Assembly: GCA_965207735.1 (NCBI GenBank)
Contig: OZ242296.1
Coordinates: 2,208,001 to 2,272,000 of the forward strand
DNA from: Candidatus Versatilivorator sp.
GTDB taxonomy: Bacteria; Acidobacteriota; Terriglobia; Versatilivoradales; Versatilivoraceae
Direction of reading: 5' to 3'
Length of the DNA: 64,000 bases
Made by a program: the position numbers and the translations under genes. Shown here piece by piece: positions 5,506 through 56,260 of the stretch. The notes beneath the pieces are model-generated. The model worked only from the letters and a program-made list of their open reading frames with translations, did not search any database and was not told the DNA's origin. Numbering within the stretch: the stretch's first letter is position 1; the number at the start of each line of letters is the position of its first letter.

Positions 5506-5619
5506 TCGGTTTCAGATTGACAGTGAACGGCTTAGACGGCAACTAACGGCCGGGGGTGCAATTGCGGGTTCCTCTCGCCTGGGGAGCGGTTCATCGGCCG
5601 GCGCCCATTGACGCCTGGG

Positions 5620-6485
5620 ATGCCTTTCCATGGGCTTACGCCCACGGCTACCTGCTGCCGCCGCCTTCGCGGCTCGGGGTTGGGGGCATCGTTTTCCATG
5701 GGCTTACGCCCACGGCTACCTGCTGGCGCCGCCTTCGCGGCTCCGCTGGAACCCCCCGGCTCGCGCCCGGGGGACAATTCATCGAATAGTCGCCGGCCCC
5801 CAGCTTGTGTCGCATTTCGGCCAGTGCGCCGATTGATTGGCTGGGTTCCAAGACTCCATTGCCTCTTCAAATCTATCCCCCTTACCCTCGGGCCTTCCTG
5901 CTGTCGCCGCCTTCGCGGCTCGGCTTTGGGGCATCTCTTTCCATGGGCTTACGCCCACGGCTACCTGCTGCCGCCGCTACGCGGCTCTATAGGAAGGCCT
6001 GCATATGTGGCGTTTTCTCATGTGAGACACACCAATCCTGGCTATGCCACGCCCCCAAATCCCCAACTCGGCGGGGAACAAGATCTGAATAGAACTTGTA
6101 GCCCAAGAGAACCCGACACGTCCGAAGCGTAGCGATCTTAAGACTTGATCCTCCCTCGGGCGCCAGCCCGAGGGCATCGAGTGGAGCGGCGAAGACGCGG
6201 CAGCAGGTAGCCGTGGGCGTAAGCCCATGGAACAGGGAGTCTTAGCGTCGAGCCGCGTAGGCGGCGACAGCAATCAGCCTTGGTGCTCGGTCTCGAACAG
6301 GTAGCTAGGATCAAAGTTGATCCGATGTTCTTTCAATAACTCCAAGGTTTTTTCCGAAACGTCTTGGTCCAATGATGGACGAATTCCCCCGGGGCGCACC
6401 CTCGGAGTTCGATCAGAGCGGCGAAGTCGTGGCAGCAGGTAGCCCCGGGCGGAAATCCCCGCTACCGAAGCCGCGTACGCGGCGA
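5620..6485. repeat. Repeat family A: GTAG-type REP cluster (GTAGCCGTGGGCGTAAGCCCATGG plus AGCCGCGAAGGCGGC hairpin)
   Basis: Copies near 5628, 5695 and 5940 in one orientation, near 6205 and a degenerate one near 6438 inverted; GTAG followed by an imperfect palindrome. Confidence 0.85.
6274..6377 (-). pseudogene. C-terminal remnant of an IS200/IS605-like (Y1/HUH) transposase
   Basis: Manual translation gives HHWTKTFRKK, a frameshift, then LELLKEHRINFDPSYLFETEHQG*, resembling the HHxxxTFxEE..LL..H.I.FD..YLF tail of these proteins; flanked by family A REPs. Confidence 0.65.
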
Positions 6486-6552: not shown

Positions 6553-7971
6553 CTACAAGATCCTCGGCGAGAGGAAGAAGACCAGCTCGCGGGTTTCCCG
6601 GACCAGGGATCGATTGCGGAAGAGGGCGCCCACGATGGGAATTTCGCCCAGCCCGGGCACCTGGCCGCGGCTGTCCTGGCGGCTGTCGATCAGGATTCCT
6701 CCGATCGCCACCGTGCCTCCGTTGTTTACCAGGATAGTGGTGGTGGTCTGGTGGGTGTTGACAGTGGGAATCCCCTGGACCTGGCGGGAAAAATCGGGTG
6801 TGGAATTTTCGATGTCCACGCTCAGCAGGATGGCGTCCTGCCGGGTGATCTGGGGGGTCACGGTGAGGCGCAGCACGAAATCGATGAAGCGGGCCGAGAC
6901 GGTGTTGTTCACGGTGGTCTGGATCGGAATCTGGATCCCCTGCTTGACCACCCCTTCCACGTTGTTCTGGGTCAGGATCTTGGGCTTGGAGAGCAGCTTG
7001 GCGTTCCCCTTGCGCTCGGCGGCGGTGATGAGGGCGTCGAGGACGAAGTCGGCCGCCAGGCCTGCGGCAAGAGTGAGGGGGCGGGCGGCTGCGCCGGTTT
7101 GCAGGTCGAGGCTCAGCCGCGACCGCTGCTCCCCCGAGGCCGATTCTCCGCCGGAGGCGGGAGCATCCAGCAGCGGAAAGGGGCTGAAGGCCGGCGCCGA
7201 GCCCGATCCTTCCTGCTGCCCTGTCCGGGCCTGCCGCCCGTAGAGGGCGCTCCACTGGACCCCGATGTCCTGCAGGAAACTCCGGCTGGCAGCCACTACC
7301 CGGGCTTCGATCTCCACCTGGCGGACCTTGCGGTCCAGCTCCCGCAAGAGGGCGTCCACCGCCTCCAGCCTGGGCGGAATGTCCGAAACGACCAGGGCGT
7401 TGGTGCGTTCATCCACGATGATGTCTCCGCGGGGGGAGAGCGCCTTCTTGAGGATGGGGCTCAATTCCGCGGCCTTGGCGAAGCTGGGCCGGCGAATCCG
7501 CGTCTCCAGGTCGGCCGCCGCCACTCTGGCCTGGGCCAGCCGCTGTTGCTGCTGCTGTTCCGCCTCCAGGGTCGAGAGCCTGGAGATCCTGAGCACGTTG
7601 CCGCTCAAGTGCCTGGCCATGCCCTGGTTCTCCAGCACCACCTCCAGAGCCTGGTCCCAGGGCACCTCCTTGAGGAATAGGGTGAGGGACCCTTCCACGT
7701 CGGGGTCCAGGACGATGTTGAGGCCGCTGATGCCGCCGATGAGGCGAAAGAAGTCCTTGAGGTCGGCGTCCTTCAGCTGCAGCGAGATTCGTTCCCCGGA
7801 GTAGGCAACCTTCTCCGTGGAAGCCGGAGGCCGCGCTTCGGCGGCGGGCTCGGGTTTCGGCCCGCCGGACTCCTCCGCGCCACTCCAGCCCCATGGCCCA
7901 GCCGCCCCCTGCCAGCAAAGCCAGAGCCCGCAGCCCCACAGGGCCAGGCGAAGTCGGGATTCAGTTCGCAT
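6553..7971 (-). CDS. pilQ: Type IV pilus secretin
   Basis: YSGERISLQLKDADL, VPWDQAL, QVEIEARVV, VPGLGEIPIVGALFR; start re-called at MRTESRL overlapping the upstream stop. Confidence 0.9.
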   Translation of the reverse strand: MRTESRLRLALWGCGLWLCWQGAAGPWGWSGAEESGGPKPEPAAEARPPASTEKVAYSGERISLQLKDADLKDFFRLIGGISGLNIVLDPDVEGSLTLFLKEVPWDQALEVVLENQGMARHLSGNVLRISRLSTLEAEQQQQQRLAQARVAAADLETRIRRPSFAKAAELSPILKKALSPRGDIIVDERTNALVVSDIPPRLEAVDALLRELDRKVRQVEIEARVVAASRSFLQDIGVQWSALYGRQARTGQQEGSGSAPAFSPFPLLDAPASGGESASGEQRSRLSLDLQTGAAARPLTLAAGLAADFVLDALITAAERKGNAKLLSKPKILTQNNVEGVVKQGIQIPIQTTVNNTVSARFIDFVLRLTVTPQITRQDAILLSVDIENSTPDFSRQVQGIPTVNTHQTTTTILVNNGGTVAIGGILIDSRQDSRGQVPGLGEIPIVGALFRNRSLVRETRELVFFLSPRIL

Positions 7972-8935
7972 GGTTGGCCTCCCCAGGCGCCGGATGCAAC
8001 TTCTTGACCACACGGCGGCTGCGCCTCCCTCCGGCGTCGCCCTCAACCCGCTCGGAAAAGACCACCCCGTCCCCGCCGATCTCCAGGACCTTGCCGTCGA
8101 ACAGGCGGTCTCCCTTCTTCAGCAGAAAGGAGCGGTCCCGACGGCCGGTGGCCAGGGCCGTGTATTCACCTCCGGCCACAACCAGCCCCACCAGCTTCAG
8201 TTCCGATACCCGTTGGCCCTTCAAGCCGCGCGGCCTGACGGCGGCAGGGGCGGCGGGAGGAAGGGGCGTGGAAGACCGCGGGACGCCGAAGGGATCGCGC
8301 CGCCCTCGGGCCCGATAGGGGTAGGCGTTCTGCCCTGCAGGGGGCGCGGGATCGGCGGGGACCTCGACGGCAGAGGCGGCCGGCCGGTAGCGATGGAGAA
8401 CGGCAGTGAGGTCGGCGGTGAGGGTGTGGCGAGAATCCTCCGGGCCGGCAGCCGCGATCCGCAGGTCCTCCAGGCTCACGATGGGGGCCAGCCCGGCCAG
8501 CTTGCCACAGAAGCCTCCCAGGTCGTGGTAAGCGCCGGCCAGCACCAGCCCGTGGGGTTCCCGGAAGAAAGTTTCTCCCTCCTGTGCGGGCTTCTTTCGA
8601 ATCCCCTTGACCTTCAATCCGGACGCCGCTGCCGCTTCCTGCAGATGCCCCAGCAGGCCCATCGCCTCCTCCTCCGGCAGGGCCGCCTCGAGACTTGCCA
8701 GCTTCGAGGCCAGCCTCCGGTTCCGGCCGGACCGCTCCTGGAGCTGCCGCTCCAGCCCTGCTCCCTGCCCCGCCTCCCGGCTCAACGTTTCCAACTGCCG
8801 CCGGCGCAGCTCGATTTCAGCTCCGTACCCGGAGACGAACAGATACCAGCCCAGTCCCAGGACCAGTCCACCCATGCCCAAGGGAATTCCCAGGCGCTGC
8901 AGCCAAGGAGGGATGTGGGTAGTTGTGAGGGTCAT
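7961..8935 (-). CDS. Type IV pilus PilO-PilP fusion-like protein
   Basis: N-terminal TM, coiled coil and LPEEE/GAYHDLGGF PilO-like domain; C-terminal YRARGRRDPF...LKLVGLV...KKGDRLFDGKVLEI PilP-like domain; lies between pilN and pilQ. Confidence 0.75.
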   Translation of the reverse strand: MTLTTTHIPPWLQRLGIPLGMGGLVLGLGWYLFVSGYGAEIELRRRQLETLSREAGQGAGLERQLQERSGRNRRLASKLASLEAALPEEEAMGLLGHLQEAAAASGLKVKGIRKKPAQEGETFFREPHGLVLAGAYHDLGGFCGKLAGLAPIVSLEDLRIAAAGPEDSRHTLTADLTAVLHRYRPAASAVEVPADPAPPAGQNAYPYRARGRRDPFGVPRSSTPLPPAAPAAVRPRGLKGQRVSELKLVGLVVAGGEYTALATGRRDRSFLLKKGDRLFDGKVLEIGGDGVVFSERVEGDAGGRRSRRVVKKLHPAPGEANHAN

Positions 8936-9019
8936 GGAATCAGGTGTCCCCGGGCTGTTCTGGTTGACGCCCGAGGGTTTGCTGTCGCCGCCTTCGAGGC
9001 TCGGCCGGCGTCGCTGATT

Positions 9020-10311
9020 TTGACTTACGGGACAGCGAGTTTCTCCCTACCGGCTCAACTGCGGGCTGGGCCCTCTCGCGACGCCGAGTTTGCCCCCCTC
9101 CGGCTCGACTGCGGGCGGAGCACTTTCGCGACGCCGAGTATGCCCCCCTCCGGCTCGACTGCGGGCGGAGCACTTTCGCGACGCCGAGTATGCCCCCCTC
9201 CGGCTCGACTGCGGGCTCCGCCCTCTCGCCGACTCCCCCTCAAGGGGGGAGTGATACTTGAGGCTTGCAGGGGGCGCCTTGCCCGATTCCTGGGCGGGAT
9301 GTAAACCATGTTCCCGGTCTAAAGTGTAAACGCCGTTCCCGGTTAGTACCCGGTATCACTCCCCCCTTGAGGGGGAGTCGCAGAAGTCGAGCCGAATGGC
9401 GAAGGCTGATGCGGTGGGGGGCCAGACGCCGGCGCAGCTTTGGGGCAACGCGTGCCCTTGAAGCAGGTCCGTCTCGCTTTGTGGCTCTGCGAGCACTGCC
9501 GATCGTCACTTACGGAACGCCGAGTCTGCCTCCCTCCGGATCGACTGCGGGCGGAGCACTTTCGCGACGCCGAGTATGCCCCCCTCCGGCTCGACTGCGG
9601 GCTCCGCCCTCTCGCCGACTCCCCCTCAAGGGGGGAGTGATACTTGAGGCTTGCAGGGGGCGCCTTGCCCGATTCCTGGGCGGGATGTAAACCATGTTCC
9701 CGGTCTAAAGTGTAAACGCCGTTCCCGGTTAGTACCCGGTATCACTCCCCCCTTGAGGGGGAGTCGCAGAAGTCGAGCCGAATGGCGAAGGCTGATGCGG
9801 TGGGGGTCAACCAACGCCTGGTACACTGTCTCCAGAACATCCATGCAGCTCTGAAACACCTCGTTGTTCCAAAAGCGCAATATTCTGTACCCCTTGCCCC
9901 GCAAATAATCATCGCGCTTCTCGTCGTAGGCGTGCCGTTCCCCATGCTGGCCGCCGTCCAGCTCGATCACCAACTTTCGGGACATGCAGGCGAAATCTAC
10001 GATGTAGGGACCTATCGGTTGCTGGCGCCGGAACTTGTAGCCGGCCAGTTGTTTCCTGCTCAGATAGTGCCACAGCAGGCCTTCTGCGTCGGTCTGTTCT
10101 TGGCGCAGAGTCTTTGCTCTTTCAAGTGTTTGCCGGGTGTAGGCGCGCATCATTCCCCCCACCTGTTGGTAGTCACTCTCGCGACGCCGCGTCTGCCCCC
10201 CTCCGGATCGACCGCGGGCTTCGCACTCTAGCGACGCCGAGTTTGCCCCCCTCCGGATCGACTGCGGGCTGCGCCCTTGTCTCTCCGACTCCCCCTCAAG
10301 GGGGGAGTGAT
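9020..10311. repeat. Repeat family B cluster (ACTCCCCCTCAAGGGGGGAGTGAT hairpins in alternating orientation) enclosing the DUF559 gene
   Basis: Hairpins near 9232, 9355, 9618, 9741 and 10288; 386-bp tandem period; 26-bp perfect inverted pair 9741-9766 / 10286-10311. Confidence 0.9.
9626..10153 (-). CDS. DUF559 / Vsr-like endonuclease; C-terminus reads on into the flanking repeat
   Basis: RAKTLRQEQTDAEGLLW..L...QLAGYKFRRQQPIGPYIVDFAC...LVIELDGGQH.......RDDYL...GYRILRFWNNEV; start at MMRAY, domain ends near 9805. Confidence 0.9.
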   Translation of the reverse strand: MMRAYTRQTLERAKTLRQEQTDAEGLLWHYLSRKQLAGYKFRRQQPIGPYIVDFACMSRKLVIELDGGQHGERHAYDEKRDDYLRGKGYRILRFWNNEVFQSCMDVLETVYQALVDPHRISLRHSARLLRLPLKGGVIPGTNRERRLHFRPGTWFTSRPGIGQGAPCKPQVSLPP

Positions 10312-10329
10312 TATTTCGTCCGATCTTCT

Positions 10330-10953
10330 TCATTTCCGGTCTCCGGTTCGACCCGATGCTTCTTCCGAGCCCTTGCCGGGTTGGTCGACAACGGCCTCCT
10401 CGAGGGAAAGGGCAAAGGCATACTGGCCGTCCTGCTCCTGGAAGTGGACCAGCTCCACTCGATGGAATTCGCCGGTGCGCTGCAAGCGGGCGATGAATTC
10501 CGAGACCCGCTCGGATTGGGCCGAGACCAGCCCGCGGAGCGAGAAGGACCCGTCCTTCCGGCTCACTTCCTGCAAGCGCAGCCCCGGAACGGCCTGGACG
10601 CAGTCTCCCAGCAGATCCAGCAGCCTGGCTGGACGCGCCTGGCGGGCCCGGAGCTGCTCTATGGCCCGGATGCGCCCCTCCATCCACAGGCCCTGCTGCT
10701 CCAGTTGCCGGATCTCCCGGGACAGGTCCAGTTGGCGCTGCCTCTGCCCGCGCACCTGCTGGATTTGCGCCTCCAGCCGTTGGCCGCGGGCCGCCTGTTC
10801 CATGCGCCAACTCAGGAGGATCGACGCCGCGCCCAGCATCATCCCCAGGGACAGCAGCCGCTGAAAGGCGCGACCGCGGCCGGCCCGGCCCATCCACCCC
10901 GGCGGTTCCGACCGCCCGGCCCCCCATTCTCCCGCCAGGTTGATCCTAATCAT
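10330..10953 (-). CDS. pilN: Type IV pilus assembly protein PilN
   Basis: MIRINL N-terminal PilM-binding motif, TM, coiled coil; overlaps the pilM stop. Confidence 0.85.
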   Translation of the reverse strand: MIRINLAGEWGAGRSEPPGWMGRAGRGRAFQRLLSLGMMLGAASILLSWRMEQAARGQRLEAQIQQVRGQRQRQLDLSREIRQLEQQGLWMEGRIRAIEQLRARQARPARLLDLLGDCVQAVPGLRLQEVSRKDGSFSLRGLVSAQSERVSEFIARLQRTGEFHRVELVHFQEQDGQYAFALSLEEAVVDQPGKGSEEASGRTGDRK

Positions 10954-14739: not shown

Positions 14740-15570
14740 ATCTCACTTACGGGACGCCGCGTCTGCCCCCCTCCGGCTCGACTGCGGGCTCCGCCCTCTC
14801 GCCGACTCCCCCTCAAGGGGGGAGTGATACTCGAGGCCTGCATGGGGCGCCTTGCCGGATTCCCGGGTAGGGTGTAAACCATGTTCCCGGTTTAATGCAT
14901 CAACTCCGTTCCCTCTTCATAACACGGGATCACTCCCCCCTTGAGGGGGAGTCGCAGAAGTCGAGCCGAATGGCGAAGGCTGATGCGGTGGGGGGCGGTC
15001 GCCGGCGCGGCTTTGGGGCAACGCGTGCCGTTGAAGCAGGTCCGTCTCGCTTTGTGGCTCTGCGAGTACTGCCGATTGCCGCTTACGGGACGCCGAGTCT
15101 GCCCCCCTCCGGCTCGACTGCGGGCTCCGCCCTCTCGCCGACTCCCCCTCAAGGGGGGAGTGATACTCGAGGCCTGCATGGGGCGCCTTGCCGGATTCCC
15201 GGGTAGGGTGTAAACCATGTTCCCGGTTTAATGCATCAACTCCGTTCCCTCTTCATAACACGGGATCACTCCCCCCTTGAGGGGGAGTCGCAGAAGTCGA
15301 GCCGAATGGCGAAGGCTGATGCGGTGGGGGGCGGTCGCCGGCGCGGCTTTGGGGCAACGCGTGCCGTTGAAGCAGGTCCGTCTCGCTTTGTGGCTCTGCG
15401 AGTACTGCCGATCGTCACTTTCGGGACGCCGAGTCTGCCCCCTCCGGCTCGACTGCGGGCTCCGCCCTCTCGCCGACTCCCCCTCAAGGGGGGAGTGATA
15501 CTCGAGGCTTGCATGGGGCGCCTTGCCCGATTCGCGGGCGGGGTGTAAACCATGTTTCCGGGTTAATGTG
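14740..15570. repeat. Repeat family B tandem array (about 336-bp period)
   Basis: Near-identical units offset by 336 bp with hairpins near 14804, 14928, 15141, 15265 and 15476. Confidence 0.9.
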
Positions 15571-18626: not shown

Positions 18627-20130
18627 CCCCCCCGGGAGCGCGGGCGTCTCGCCCGCATTCGACTTGGCATGATGGAAACGATCCCCCTAAGGGTGAGTTG
18701 GGTGCGCTTTGCGAGGGAGTGGCCGGGGGCGGCAGACTGTTTGCAGGAATTCGGTTGCGGGCGGGACGCCCGCGTTCCCGGGGGGGCCATTCCTTTGCCG
18801 GTTTCCCGTGCGTCCATACTTCGTTGGCGACTTGGCGCACCGCACCTATTTCTTGGACCATTCTCGCTTTGGAGGCAATACGGCTCGTGAAGAAAGACCA
18901 CCCGGGAGCGCGGGCGTCTCGCCCGCACAAGGCCTGGCACGAACGTGGCTACCTCCCGCACTTCGATGAAGCGGGAACGGTGCAATTTCTCACTTTCCGC
19001 CTTGTTGACGCGGTTCCCGCCGCGACAGTCACCGCCTGGAAAACCGAACTGAAGCTCAGTGGCGGTGAAACGGCCGACGATCCCCGCTGTGCGCGCCTTC
19101 GCGGCCGAATCGAGCGTTTCGCCGACCAGGGACACGGCGCCTGCTGGCTGAAAGACGCCCGCGCCGCGCAGGTGGTCCAGGATGCGCTGCTGCATTTTGA
19201 CGGTGAGCGGTATCGGCTTCTGGCGTGGGTCATCATGCCCAATCACGTGCATGCGGTAATCGAGACACTGCCCGGCTTTCCCTTGGACGGGGTCATTCAC
19301 TCCTGGAAGTCGTTCACTGCCAAGCGGGCCAATCGACTCTTGGGCCGGACTGGCGCCTTCTGGATGGGAGACTACTTCGACCGCTATGTCCGCGATGAGG
19401 CACATCTCTGGGACGTAATGCGTTACATGGAAGAGAACCCCGCAAAGGCGGGTTTGGTGCGCTTCGCAAGGGAGTGGCCGTGGATGGGAGGCTGTCTACA
19501 GGAATAAGACCCACCCGGGAGCGCGGGCGTCTCGCCCGCACAAGGCCTGGCACCATGGAAACGATCCCCCTAAAGGTGAGTTGGGTGCGCTTTGCGAGGG
19601 AATGGCCGCGGACGGCAGGCGGCTTGCAGGAATAAGGTTGCGGGCGGGACGCCCACCCGGGAGCGCGGGCGTCTCGCCCGCACAAGGCTCGGCACCATGG
19701 AAACGATCCCCCTAAAGGTGAGTTGGGTGCGCTTTGCGAGGGAATGGCCGCGGACGGCAGGCGGCTTGCAGGAATAAGGTTGCGGGCGGGACGCCCACCC
19801 GGGAGCGCGGGCGTCTCGCCCGCACAAGGCTCGGCACGAAGGAAACGATCCCCCTGAAGGTGAGTTGGGTGCGCTTTGCGAGGGAATGGCCGTGGATGGG
19901 AGGCTGTTTGCAGGAATAGGGTTGCGGGCGGGACGCCCGCGTTCCCGGGGGTTTGGTGCACTATGCGAGGGAATGGCCGTGGATGGGAGGCTGTTTGCAG
20001 GAATAAGGTTGCGGGCGAGACGCCCGCGTTCCCGGGGGTTGGTGCACTGTGCGTGGGAATGGCCCTGGACCGCAGGCTGTTTGCAGGAATAAGGTTGCGG
20101 GCGGGACGCCCGCGCTCCCGGGGGGGCCTT
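18627..20130. repeat. Repeat family C: REP/REPIN-like cluster around the RAYT gene (CCCGGGAGCGCGGGCGTCTCGCCCGCA and inverse), 142-bp tandem units downstream
   Basis: Paired inverted REPs at about 18630/18757 and tandem units from about 19514 with 142-bp period. Confidence 0.9.
18887..19507 (+). CDS. REP-associated tyrosine transposase (RAYT, Y1/HUH family)
   Basis: WHERGYLPH, FLTFRL, WVIMPNHVH (HUH), WKSFTA, FW..DYFDRYVRD, Y.EENP.KAGL; GGAGG then GTG at 18887; flanked by REPs. Confidence 0.92.
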   Translation: MKKDHPGARASRPHKAWHERGYLPHFDEAGTVQFLTFRLVDAVPAATVTAWKTELKLSGGETADDPRCARLRGRIERFADQGHGACWLKDARAAQVVQDALLHFDGERYRLLAWVIMPNHVHAVIETLPGFPLDGVIHSWKSFTAKRANRLLGRTGAFWMGDYFDRYVRDEAHLWDVMRYMEENPAKAGLVRFAREWPWMGGCLQE

Positions 20131-20194
20131 TCCAATGGTGCGGTGGGCTCCGACAGTGGCAGCCTTTACCCGTCCGACCGCACGGCAACTCCAC

Positions 20195-41214: not shown

Positions 41215-41880
41215 TGCCGATCGCCACTTACGGGACGCCGAGTTTGCCCCCCTCCGGCTCGACTGCGGGCTCCGCCCTCTCGCCGACTCCCCCTCAAGGG
41301 GGGAGTGATACTTGAGGCCTGCACAAGACCTCTTGCCCGATTCCTGGGCGGGGTGTAAACCATGTTCCCGGTCCAATGGGTAAACGCCGTTCCCGGTTAG
41401 TGCCGCGGGTATCACTCCCCCCTTGAGGGGGAGTCGCAGAAGTCGAGCCGAATGGCGAAGGCTGATGCGGTGGGGGGCGGACGCCGGCGCGGCTTTGGGG
41501 GCAACGCGTGCCGTTGAAGTAGGTCCGTCTCGCTTCGCGGCTCTGCGAGCACTGCCGGTCGCCGCTTACGGGACGCCGAGTCTGCCCCCCTCCGGCTCGA
41601 CTGCGGGCTCCGCCCTCTCGCCGACTCCCCCTCAAGGGGGGAGTGATACTCGAGGCTTGCATGGGGCGCCTTGCCTGATTCCTGGGCGGGGTGTAAACCA
41701 TGTTCCCGGTCCAATGGGTAAACGCCGTTCCCGGTTAGTGCCGCGGGTATCACTCCCCCCTTGAGGGGGAGTCGGAGAAGCCGAGCCGAATGGCGAAGGC
41801 TGATCCGGAGGGGGGCCAACGCGGCGTCCCGAGAGTGCTCCTCCCGCCGTCGATCCAGAGGGGGGCAGACGCCACCTACC
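41215..41880. repeat. Family B tandem array (about 338-bp period)
   Basis: Hairpins near 41286, 41411, 41624 and 41749. Confidence 0.88.
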
Positions 41881-41914: not shown

Positions 41915-42139
41915 TTACCGAAGAATTTTGCAAATGGCTCTCTTCAGTGTCACGTCTTTGTACCGAACTGAGATCGGCGTTTGAGCAACAAAAGGGATCT
42001 TCCTGGCTCTCAACTCGATTTCCAGGGCTTCCTGGTAAATCGATTCCAGAAAGCCCGGGCCAAGCTCGCGATGCACCTCAATCGCAGCTCCCACAACGGC
42101 GTACACTTCGTCTTTCAATATCAAATCCGACACTGCCAA
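41915..42139 (-). pseudogene. Truncated GxxExxY protein (PD-(D/E)XK-like nuclease family)
   Basis: YAVVGAAIEVHRELGPGFLESIYQEALEIEL....IPF..Q..I.V.YK with the GxxExxY motif; only 74 aa, lacking the expected D...IVELK half. Confidence 0.85.
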
Positions 42140-42169
42140 CTCTCATGGCCCACCTGCCAAGGCTAGAAA

Positions 42170-49769: not shown

Positions 49770-50545
49770 GATATCCACGAAGGGCCACCAAGAACGGCGA
49801 AGGGCCACCAAGCGGTACGGAGCTGCTTCAACGGCACGCGGCGCCTGCCCCCCACCGGATCGACGGCGGGCTGCGCCCTTGTCTCTCCGACTCCCCCTCA
49901 AGGGGGGAGTGATACTCGAGGCTTGCATGGGGCGCCTTGCCCGATTTCTGGGCAGGATGTAAACCATGTTCCCGGTTTAATGTGTAAACGCCGTTCCCGG
50001 TTAGTGCCCGCTATCACTCCCCCCTTGAGGGGGAGTCGCAGAAGCCGAGCCGAATGGCGAAGGCTGATGCGGAGGGGGGCCAACTCGGCGTCTCCGAACG
50101 GTAGCGCCGAATGGTGAAGGCTGATGCGGTGGGGGGCGGACGCCGGCGCAGCTTTGCGGCAACGCGTGCCGTTGAAGCAGGTCCGTCTGGCTTTGCGGCT
50201 CTGCGAGTACTGCCGATTGCCACTTACGCGACGCCGAGTCTGCCCCCCTCCGGATCGACGGCGGGCGGAGCCCTTGTCTCTCCGACTCCCCCTCAAGGGG
50301 GGAGTGATACTTGAGGCTTGCATGGGGCGCCTTGCCCGATTCCTGGGCAGGATGTAAACCATGTTCCCGGTTTAATGTGTAAACGCCGTTCTCGGTTAGT
50401 GCCCGCTATCACTCCCCCCTTGAGGGGGAGTCGCAGAAGCCGAGCCGAATGGCGAAGGCTGATGCGGTGGGGGGCCAACTCGGCGTCTCCGAACGGTAGA
50501 GCCGTATGGCGAAGGCTGATGCGGTGGGGGGCATACGCCGGCGCT
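49770..50545. repeat. Family D unit plus family B array between gspI and gspJ
   Basis: ATCCACGAAGGGCCAC near 49773; hairpins near 49890, 50013, 50285 and 50408. Confidence 0.85.
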
Positions 50546-51149: not shown

Positions 51150-51930
51150 GCTCACGGGACGCCGGGTTGGCCCCCCTCTGGCTCGACGGCGGGCTGCGCT
51201 TTCTCGCGACGCCGAGTCTGCCCCCCACCGGATCGACGGCGGGCTGCGCCCTGTGGTAGTCACTCTCGGGGCGCCGAGTCTGCCCCCCTCCGGATCGACG
51301 GCGGGCTGCGCCCTTGTCTCTCCGACTCCCCCTCAAGGGGGGAGTGATACTCGAGGCTTGCATGGGGCGCCTTGCCCGATTCCTGGGCAGGGTGTAAACC
51401 ATGTTCCCGGTCTAACGCATAAACTCCGTTCCCCCTTCATAACACGGATATCACTCCCCCCTTGAGGGGGAGTCGCAGAAGTCGAGCCGAATGGCGAAGG
51501 CTGATGCGGTGGGGGGCGGACGCCGGCGCGGCTTTGCGGCAACGCGTGCCGTTGAAGCAGGTCCGTCTGGCTTTGCGGCTCTGCGAGTACTGCCGATTGA
51601 CACTTTCGGGACGCCGAGTCTGCCCCCCTCCGGATCGACGGCGGGCTGCGCCCTTGTCTCTCCGACTCCCCCTCAAGGGGGGAGTGATACTTGAGGCTTG
51701 CATGGGGCGCCTTGCCCGATTCCTGGGCAGGATGTAAACCATGTTCCCGGTTTAATGTGTAAACGCCGTTCTCGGTTAGTGCCCGCTATCACTCCCCCCT
51801 TGAGGGGGAGTCGCAGAAGCCGAGCCGAATGGCGAAGGCTGATGCGGTGGGGGGCCAACTCGGCGTCTCCGAACGGTAGAGCCGTATGGCGAAGGCTGAT
51901 GCGGTGGGGGGCATACGCCGGCGCTCCCGG
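51150..51930. repeat. Family B array inside the 1380-bp duplication
   Basis: Hairpins near 51324, 51450, 51665 and 51788; 51605-52417 matches 50225-51037. Confidence 0.85.
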
Positions 51931-54464: not shown

Positions 54465-55005
54465 ACTCACGGGACGTTGCGTTGGCCCCCCTCCGGATCG
54501 ACGGCGGGCTTCGCTTTCTCGCGACGCCGAGTCTGCCCCCCACCGGATCGACGGCGGGCTGCGCCCTTGTCTCTCCGACTCCCCCTCAAGGGGGGAGTGA
54601 TACTCGAGGCTTGCAGGGGGCGCCTTGCCCGATTGCTGGGCGGGGTGTAAACCATGTTCCCGGTCTAATGGGTAAACGTCGTTCTCGGTTAGTGCCCGCT
54701 ATCACTCCCCCCTTGAGGGGGAGTCGCAGAAGTCGAGCCGAATGGCGAAGGCTGATGCGGTGGGGGGCGGACGCCGGCGCGGCTTCGGGGCAACGCGTGC
54801 CGTTGAAGCAGGTCCGTCTCGCTTTGTGGCTCTACGAGTACTGCCGATTGCCACTTACGCGACGCCGCGTTGGCCCCCCTCCGGATCGACTGCGGGCTGC
54901 GCCCTTGTCTCTCCGACTCCCCCTCAAGGGGGGAGTGATACTCGAGGCTTGCACAGAGCGCCTTGCCCGATTCGCGGGCAGGATGTAAACCATGTTCCCG
55001 GTTTG
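54465..55005. repeat. Family B array downstream of gspH
   Basis: Hairpins near 54578, 54701 and 54915. Confidence 0.85.
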
Positions 55006-55602: not shown

Positions 55603-56260
55603 TGCTGTCGCCGCCTTCGCGGCTCGGCTCTCGCCGTAACCCTTTCCATGGGCTTACGCCCACGGCTACCTGCTGCCGCGGCTTCGCCGCTCGGCTCGTA
55701 ATGCCGATCGCCACTTTCGCGACGCCGCGTTGGACTCCCACTGGATCGACTTTGGGGCAACGGGTGCCGTTGAAGCAGGTCCGCCTCGCTTCGCGGCTCT
55801 GCGAGTACTGCCGATCGTCACTTACGGGACGCCGAGTCTGCCCCCCTCCGGATCGACGGCGGGGCAACGCGTACCGTTGAAGCAGGTGCGTCTGGCTTTG
55901 CGGCTCTGCGAGTAATGCCGATCGCCACTTTCGCGACGCCGAGTCTGCCCCCCTCCGGATCGACGGCGGGCTTCGCCCTTGTCTCTCCGACTCCCCCTCA
56001 AGGGGGGAGTGATACTTGAGACTTGCATGGGGCGCCTTGCCCGATTCCTGGGCAGGATGTAAACCATGTTTCCGGTTTAATGTGTAAACGCCGTTCCCGG
56101 TTAGTGCCCGCTATCACTCCCCCCTTGAGGGGGAGTCGCAGAAGCCGAGCCGAATGGCGAAGGCTGATGCGGTGGGGGGCCAACTCGGCGTCTCCGAACG
56201 ATAGCGCCGAATGGCGAAGGCTGATGCGGTGGGGGGCGGACTCCGGCGCGGCTTTGGGGG
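55603..56260. repeat. Family A REP followed by family B array between gspG and gspH
   Basis: REP near 55646; hairpins near 55990 and 56113. Confidence 0.85.

Follow-up and report, generated by a model that had tools for sequence, protein, structure and literature searches.

The insert between pilN and pilO

In the window, by which we mean the complete 64 000 nt stretch of DNA that was analysed, an insert of ~1.4 kb (8936–10329) fills the gap between pilO and pilN. It contains a DUF559 gene framed by two repeat ends, designated L and R, and gene-less copies of the same repeats. In the reading direction of the gene, the features are:

10330–10953, minus strand: pilN (Pfam), upstream neighbour of the DUF559 gene, with its stop codon 18 nt ahead of the L hairpin
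10246–10311, minus strand: L end with the outer 26 nt hairpin (10286–10311), a 35 nt stem-loop linker and a G-tract towards the DUF559 gene
10154–10245, minus strand: 5′ leader with one 50 nt partial L inner-arm repeat (10195–10219) and a G-tract abutting the ATG
9626–10153, minus strand: DUF559 gene, 175 codons, with the Vsr-like domain at 9812–10129 and a tail which reads through the R end and the spacer
9741–9806, plus strand: R end with the outer 26 nt hairpin (9741–9766), a 36 nt stem-loop linker and a G-tract towards the DUF559 gene
9579–9806: first back-to-back doublet, composed of L (9579–9641), a conserved 99 nt spacer (9642–9740) and R (9741–9806)
9421–9578: non-coding filler which separates facing R and L and includes one partial L repeat
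9193–9420: second back-to-back doublet
9092–9192: partial repeats, two 50 nt tandem copies of part of the L inner arm
7961–8935, minus strand: pilO, downstream neighbour, with a PilO domain and a C-terminal extension (Pfam)

The segments 9155–9420 and 9541–9806 form an exact duplication of 266 bp. PilN and PilO could be identified by Pfam as products of the flanking genes, and the cassette splits the pilN–pilO junction, as the first-pass annotation of the window had proposed. That annotation had also described a DUF559 gene between a 26-mer and its perfect reverse complement, and about 28 hairpins counted by eye. The 26-mer (9741–9766, plus strand) and its exact reverse complement (10286–10311) are both present with the gene between them, and the count is correct: the window contains 28 exact copies versus 0 expected from 100 shuffles. 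The flanking repeats are exact, but their perfection is not special, because all 28 copies in the window are identical.

Twelve relatives with a pilN match were compared at this junction. An empty site, which was to be sought according to the first-pass annotation, exists in one of the 12 (G004), where pilN and pilO are directly coupled without an insert. G010 contains the same cassette at the same junction; its DUF559 protein is 79% identical to that of the window, and its gene is flanked by two doublets of equal orientation. Six relatives have these repeats or fragments of them without the DUF559 gene; three contain an insert with another nuclease and other repeats, and G011 is too remote for the junction to be read. 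This other insert, found in G002, G006 and G007 (L036:2246–2623, L038, L037), contains a GxxExxY (PDDEXK_3) gene (PF13366, E = 2.2e-29) with short inverted tandem repeats of its own on both sides; in G007, the cassette has lost an internal part. It is a second pairing of a nuclease with repeats that does without an HUH enzyme. Y1 genes of several relatives are located at most 15 kb from pilN, and two repeat-rich regions of the window genome G000 (2.19–2.43 Mb and 4.43–4.53 Mb) adjoin each other in G002. These two observations indicate that the pil region attracts several small nuclease cassettes.

The frame of the DUF559 gene is open from the ATG at 10153, takes in the downstream repeat and ends with a stop codon at 9626, which results in a protein of 175 aa. 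Its only Pfam matches are DUF559 (PF04480) and MTES_1575, the former with E = 1.8e-41 and 140.9 bits (cut-off 20.6) over positions 3–108 of 109. It is the sole free-standing DUF559 gene found in the genome; a second match covers part of the domain and is located where a 943-codon frame ends. Foldseek analysis of the predicted structure (pLDDT 86.6) revealed similarity to 3hrl (E = 1.1e-8), 3r3p (E = 3.4e-5) and 1vsr (E = 8e-3), the fold matching 3hrl and I-Bth0305I. The residues E24, D53, H70 and D77 are kept in 80–81 of 81 proteins, which fits the EDxHD motif of the Vsr and I-Bth0305I nucleases (Taylor et al., 2011, PMC3239194). Judged from the modelled fold and these active-site residues, the protein is a member of the Vsr-like EDxHD nucleases, and cleavage activity is predicted.

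The fold and the conserved E, D, H and D residues are shared with Vsr, I-Bth0305I and 3hrl. In contrast to this group, the window protein has no N-terminal DNA-binding domain, and neither an intron nor an intein indicating a homing-gene context was seen at the window locus. Its gene has no adjacent cytosine methylase gene and is framed by repeats. It is under purifying selection, with dN/dS values of 0.07–0.33 in those 14 of 16 pairs that have a finite dS, the other two pairs being saturated.

Two types of repeat end and the dispersed unit

The 26-mer is present in the 5.26 Mb genome in 143 exact copies, in 166 copies if up to three mismatches are allowed and in 171 with up to four. It represents the outer third of an element of ~65 nt, the inner parts of which differ on either side of the gene, as each hairpin is followed by either of two linkers and a G-tract. 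The 171 copies consist of 83 of type L, 82 of type R and six untyped ones. At the window gene, L is located upstream and R downstream, both with the G-tract towards the gene. All typed pairs combine an L with an R, whether back-to-back (57 of 57) or facing (18 of 18); the four same-strand neighbours are LL or RR.

The element is built from a pyrimidine stem, a purine stem and a mirrored third strand, in the order of a class II intrastrand triplex motif. There are seven triads per element, which obey the G:G and A:A/T pairing rule; opposite a stem A, the third-strand letter is A or T in 159 of the 161 scored genome copies (10 were unscorable). The second loop, 32–37 nt in nearly all copies, folds into a hairpin of its own according to secondary-structure folding. 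In the lower stem of the second hairpin of R, five of eight pairs change on both sides among 16 R ends. Covariation in this linker stem was as high in none of 500 shuffles and was above all slid controls; the structure was that obtained by folding the window sequence, and of 19 ends, three that are shorter or gapped were omitted, as was L069. By architecture, the repeat belongs to the BoxC/PIT/TM triplex class, the triplex form itself being predicted from the sequence. The initial classification of the hairpin as a REP/REPIN-type family is to be replaced by this known class.

BoxC, PIT and TM(ECO) elements share the C-rich stem, the short loop, the G-rich stem, the second loop and the mirrored G-rich third strand (class II), and they are also intergenic, multicopy and variable between relatives. 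In E. coli, all five inverted TM pairs join a type A with a type B element (Holder et al., 2015, PMC4666352), which is the same asymmetry as that of L and R. An assignment to TM(ECO) in the strict sense was rejected: 9 nt stems and a 3 nt loop are required for it, with nine triads and a second loop of 3 nt, whereas the repeat described here has seven triads and a self-folding loop of 32–37 nt. The published triplex finder would miss this repeat, because loops are limited there to 1–6 nt (Holder et al., 2015, PMC4666352). An Rfam search with the doublet hairpin gave only sub-threshold miRNA matches.

The copies are arranged in 90 clusters, among them 34 lone back-to-back doublets, 42 singles and not one lone facing L-filler-R; each facing pair has a member that is also part of a back-to-back doublet. 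The unit dispersed alone in the window genome is the back-to-back doublet of R and L (L, a spacer of ~100 nt, R). The other copies in the window are:

14803–15499: gene-less array L-R-L-R-L with a period of ~336 nt
41284–41774, 49888–50433, 51323–51813, 54576–54939 and 55988–56138: further arrays and doublets
33860: single copy

Array periods range from 336 to 386 nt. Facing pairs at about 14929–15164, 41411–41648, 51450–51690 and 54701–54940 had been read as the same two ends enclosing a filler instead of the nuclease. They exist to within 2 nt, but are inner parts of arrays, and L-filler-R was rejected as a stand-alone non-autonomous element of the window genome (0 of 90 clusters). Both inner sequences are conserved: the spacer is found in 74 copies, 72 of which adjoin a hairpin, and the filler in 24, almost always next to a hairpin. 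Their origin by deletion from the gene was likewise rejected, since the local score against the gene was reached by 36 of 200 shuffles for the filler and by 82 of 200 for the spacer. The proposal of an autonomous/non-autonomous pair holds in so far as G009 contains a deletion element of the form L-gene remnant-R, but the filler is unrelated to the gene and L-filler-R never occurs alone.

In a search for excision footprints, no hairpin joining two outer arms was detected in the genome; a single one joins two inner arms and is most simply explained by deletion of the spacer. The strand of the doublets showed no link to the sign of the local GC skew (23/11 versus 7/4). Within 50 kb of the gene we found 44 of the 171 copies, compared with 3.2 expected, an enrichment which is confounded because the RAYT repeat peaks in the same region, too.

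The RAYT-like Y1 gene of the window is located at:

18698–19507, plus strand: RAYT-like Y1 gene, flanked by its own repeat arrays (113 genome copies)

Many relatives have orthologous layouts of this gene. A dedicated RAYT/Y1 partner of the DUF559-associated hairpin, which had been named as an observation that would speak against the DUF559 system, was not found: none of the 30 Y1/RAYT loci of the genus has this hairpin within 1.5 kb, and with the window Y1 gene having a repeat of its own, RAYT was rejected as the partner.

Association of gene and repeat across genomes

The hairpin is present in all 13 relatives from the genus (2–308 copies) and in none of 27 genomes outside it. An intact cognate DUF559 gene was detected in two of the 14 genus genomes (G000 and G010), and remnants in G009 and G011. 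Six genus genomes with 52–147 hairpin copies, four of them assembled into 1–3 contigs, have no trace of the gene. Within the genus, copy number does not track the presence of DUF559 as had been anticipated. Homogeneity of the repeat was discarded as an indicator as well: the share of exact copies is 0.94 and 0.61 in the genomes with the gene and 0.93 and 0.88 in two without it. Persistence of repeats after the loss of their enzyme, which has been described for REPINs (Bertels and Rainey, bioRxiv 10.1101/2021.07.10.451892), is possible, but the copy-number test is weakened.

Beyond the genus, the suggested link between the gene family and hairpin repeats was borne out. We surveyed the best 80 of 240 homologous loci with our own strict triplex finder (perfect stem, at least seven triads, second loop of at most 45 nt). 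A gene-facing triplex-type motif is located within 200 nt upstream of 54 of 75 genes and downstream of 52 of 77; 64 of 72 have it on either side and 37 of 72 on both. Windows of the same size placed 700 nt further out yielded 1 of 73 and 0 of 71, and shuffles yielded none. In the controls, the motif was detected next to none of 19 DUF559 domains with which large proteins end and in one of 300 windows drawn at random from genomes. Outward-facing motifs are also common near the homologs (14 of 75 upstream, 30 of 77 downstream), as expected from doublets. For a more distant set of 21 DUF559 loci, the strict finder detected a motif on either side in nine of 20; motifs with mismatched stems, which it skips, are visible there by eye. 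When the third strand was picked on G matches only, the letter opposite a stem A was T in 81 cases, A in 62, G in one and C in none (106 motifs), in keeping with the pairing rule of purine triplexes, A(T)AT/GGC (Holder et al., 2015, PMC4666352).

The window-type repeat flanks 25 of the 28 genes of the window clade, which come from six phyla, and none of the 52 others; the clade has an SH-aLRT support of 84 in a quick tree. The polarity seen in the window recurs in this clade, with the L linker upstream of 19 genes and downstream of none, and the R linker downstream of 17 genes and upstream of one. The closest homolog among the best 80 of 240 loci belongs to Ca. Versatilivorator (Acidobacteriota). 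Different DUF559 clades have different, side-matched triplex repeats. Three genes of the window clade (L058, L061 and L064), which occupy the same hsdS site, have switched to short-loop triplex repeats, showing that a gene can be retained while its repeats are exchanged for another type.

Hairpin counts in 10 foreign genomes were 3, 35, 18, 2, 11, 0, 2, 2, 36 and 21. The genome without a hairpin has a different triplex type, and in three Binatia genomes the cassette ends account for the sole two copies. Another family was sampled with 61 genomes, which include kin and are thus not independent. The link is better there than in the genus, though not exclusive: all four with a gene of at least 60% identity carry 7–35 copies, and seven of the 57 without a close gene carry 2–16. 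A plasmid collection yielded 26 records at E ≤ 1e-20, all below 60% identity and mostly on very large replicons.

The E. coli gene ycjD is a DUF559 gene as well. An inward-facing BoxC copy abuts its 3′ end and none is located upstream; K-12 has a worn version of this copy, two other strains a complete one. Of 5426 complete E. coli genomes, 3378 have the gene. An empty site was not found in four strains lacking ycjD, which have a multidrug efflux operon by sapF instead (fabI–sapF, L231–L235), and no target duplication was seen in this species.

Mobility, related systems and explanations

Twenty of the 80 homologs are located in frame inside host genes. In 17 cases the site is the linker of hsdS, and in the three others the hosts are MetRS, a type ISP enzyme and a DNA methylase; an additional in-frame cassette resides in the N6 methylase of G001. 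Host genes were called by Pfam for one hsdS case and from common linker motifs for the remaining ones. The repeats inside host genes are translated without stops. The 17 hsdS cases may all descend from a single insertion that travelled with the restriction system, but the remaining hosts, the pil junction and three sites with remnants in G009 are distinct locations. From its occurrence at several unrelated sites, across phyla and in frame inside genes, we infer that the cassette is mobilised.

At these three sites of G009, gene remnants are tied to R. One deletion derivative in this genome consists of L, 37 nt of the gene start, 45 nt of the gene end and R; a second lone facing L-R unit has an unrelated filling. 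The two intergenic mini-elements are:

L241:1350–1630 (G009): lone L-R mini-element
L256 (G009): lone L-R mini-element

Their short outer flanks resemble hsdS linkers, the left flank of the first unit being identical over 14 nt, and no hsdS is located within 1.5 kb. Because of such flanks without a nearby hsdS, the moved unit likely extends beyond the hairpins, hinting that either donor flanks are carried along or the true ends lie beyond the repeats. Solo worn hairpins in hsdS at the cassette linker are found in G000, G005, G006 and G009, that of the window genome in the following gene:

G000:C1:3489253–3490920: hsdS with one worn hairpin, in frame, at the cassette linker

Neither a target duplication nor a sharp outer end was detected at 16 orthologous G000–G002 sites with alignable flanks, which come from two intervals, the remaining clusters having no alignable or collinear flanks. 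At 10 of the 16 sites the hairpin is absent from G002, with other repeat families in its place; repeats are gained and lost between these close relatives. Target duplications were not found in hsdS either, where the canonical linkers are too divergent to be aligned with cassette-bearing ones. The insertion boundaries in assembled runs (six of 24 runs) consisted only of repeat-to-repeat joints with short sides.

The arrangement invites comparison with REPIN-RAYT systems, with which it shares a single small nuclease gene per genome with cognate repeats on either side, extragenic repeats in the hundreds, and the extragenic dispersal of inverted doublets with a spacer (34 isolated ones here). The DUF559 gene of G010, located between two doublets, is much like a RAYT gene between REPINs. 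In contrast, the enzyme has a Vsr-like PD-(D/E)XK-type fold rather than being of the HUH/Y1 type, the two repeats of a doublet are unlike (L and R), and the spacer is conserved rather than variable. Whereas a RAYT gene is single, immobile and vertically inherited, the DUF559 gene is found at many sites, across six phyla and inside genes; it is single in the window genome, at the same site in G010 and at other sites in G009. Insertion sequences and MITEs show the same position of a gene between distinct left and right ends, deletion derivatives and many unrelated sites. With respect to such derivatives, one with both ends was found in G009 and none among the filler units of the window. Differences from IS/MITE are that no known transposase family is matched (Pfam), that a target duplication or sharp end was not found in the comparisons described above, and that the commonest dispersed form is a back-to-back doublet. 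The system works like RAYT-REPIN or IS-MITE, but has the defining enzyme of neither.

Repeat class and protein family are each known. A literature search among papers available without subscription revealed none linking DUF559 to BoxC/PIT/TM repeats. The accessible part of Holder et al. (2015, PMC4666352) names no partner enzyme (0 occurrences each of ‘ycjD’ and ‘endonuclease’), and states that transposase or integrase remnants are not present near TMs and that a stable triplex has not been seen in vivo.

We see an even chance that the DUF559 nuclease causes the spread of its repeats by nicking. The L and R ends would fold in transient single-stranded DNA into a hairpin, a second hairpin and a purine-motif triplex. 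The DUF559 protein would recognise the folded ends and nick at or just outside them, and host repair or template switching would make a new copy of the ends, of doublets and sometimes of the whole cassette. The local arrays with their regular period and the 50 nt partial repeats probably grow by slippage or unequal recombination, for which the enzyme would not be needed. Vsr-type hydrolases are not known to form a covalent protein–DNA link. Such an enzyme could therefore not rejoin DNA as an HUH RAYT does, and a hydrolase without a covalent join fits the ragged outer ends and the absence of a target duplication. More tentatively, and as a possibility rather than a probability, we propose that a Vsr-fold nuclease of 120 residues which recognises triplex-forming ends, moves its own cassette from phylum to phylum and, in frame, into the linkers of proteins, and spawns the BoxC/TM repeats, for which no partner has been known since the 1990s, constitutes an undescribed class of bacterial mobile element.

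In vitro, DNA polymerase is blocked by PIT elements, and TM sites are prone to instability (Holder et al., 2015, PMC4666352); both would suit a protein that binds or cuts the folded repeats in order to resolve them, e.g. at triplex blocks of the fork, and has no role in spreading. The repeats would then spread via slippage, recombination and gene conversion, and the gene would be linked to them as it is useful near, or regulated by, repeats. Purifying selection even on genes fused in hsdS and the many genomes with ~50–150 copies and no gene are in line with such a function, as are the exact tandem duplications and 50 nt partial repeats, which resemble slippage products. We nevertheless consider it unlikely: housekeeping does not require a gene between one L and one R in fixed polarity, the cassettes inside at least five kinds of genes are not explained, and the gene is freely lost by genomes.

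It is distinctly improbable that the protein is a free-standing homing endonuclease which cuts gene-less L-R or solo-hairpin alleles, with the gene being copied in through the repeats as landing pads that spread by other means. The nearest characterised structural relative, I-Bth0305I, is indeed a homing enzyme, but the DUF559 protein with its core of 122 aa lacks the separate DNA-binding domain of the latter. The gene sits where other units have the filler between R and L, yet 16 gene-less facing units of the window genome are still unconverted, and three genomes offer no other repeats as targets. The solo-hairpin hsdS alleles at the cassette site in four genomes would be expected from homing, but collapse of the cassette explains them equally well. 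Hardly probable, too, is a passenger role, in which DUF559 was captured once between two repeats and is carried along, while the repeats owe their movement to the trans action of the resident RAYT, of a GxxExxY nuclease or of host recombination. Y1 genes are present in 12 of 14 genus genomes, more than have a cognate DUF559 gene, and the same intergenic gaps hold several repeat families in different relatives. This reading is contradicted by the Y1 loci, which lack the repeat and, in the window, have their own, and by G010, which combines 152 copies and the DUF559 gene with no Y1 match (93% complete); moreover, one capture does not explain why different DUF559 clades have different side-matched repeats.

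Repeats of the BoxC/PIT/TM class occur widely, adopt triplex structures in vitro and are a mark of unstable loci (Holder et al., 2015, PMC4666352). To DUF559, a common domain whose structure has been solved, no function is assigned in the papers found, PMC3424549 among them. Their pairing provides a candidate enzyme and substrate for a decades-old orphan repeat, which is testable even in E. coli K-12 with ycjD and BoxC. Should the protein recognise a DNA triplex, or bring about copying in which no transposase-type join is made, this would be a new route to repeat spread and also to in-frame domain insertion into proteins such as HsdS and MetRS. The window locus adds the L/R polarity across six phyla, a long-loop variant escaping the finders, and evidence on the dispersed unit.

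The window also contains further repeat families. Their ORF-free arrays occupy intergenic gaps at 5532–6273 and 19500–20135, beside pilQ and the RAYT gene, and a gene fragment of the nuclease type seen at the junction of relatives is found at:

41915–42142, minus strand: 5′ half of a PDDEXK_3 (GxxExxY) gene amid short repeats with ~378 matches in the genome
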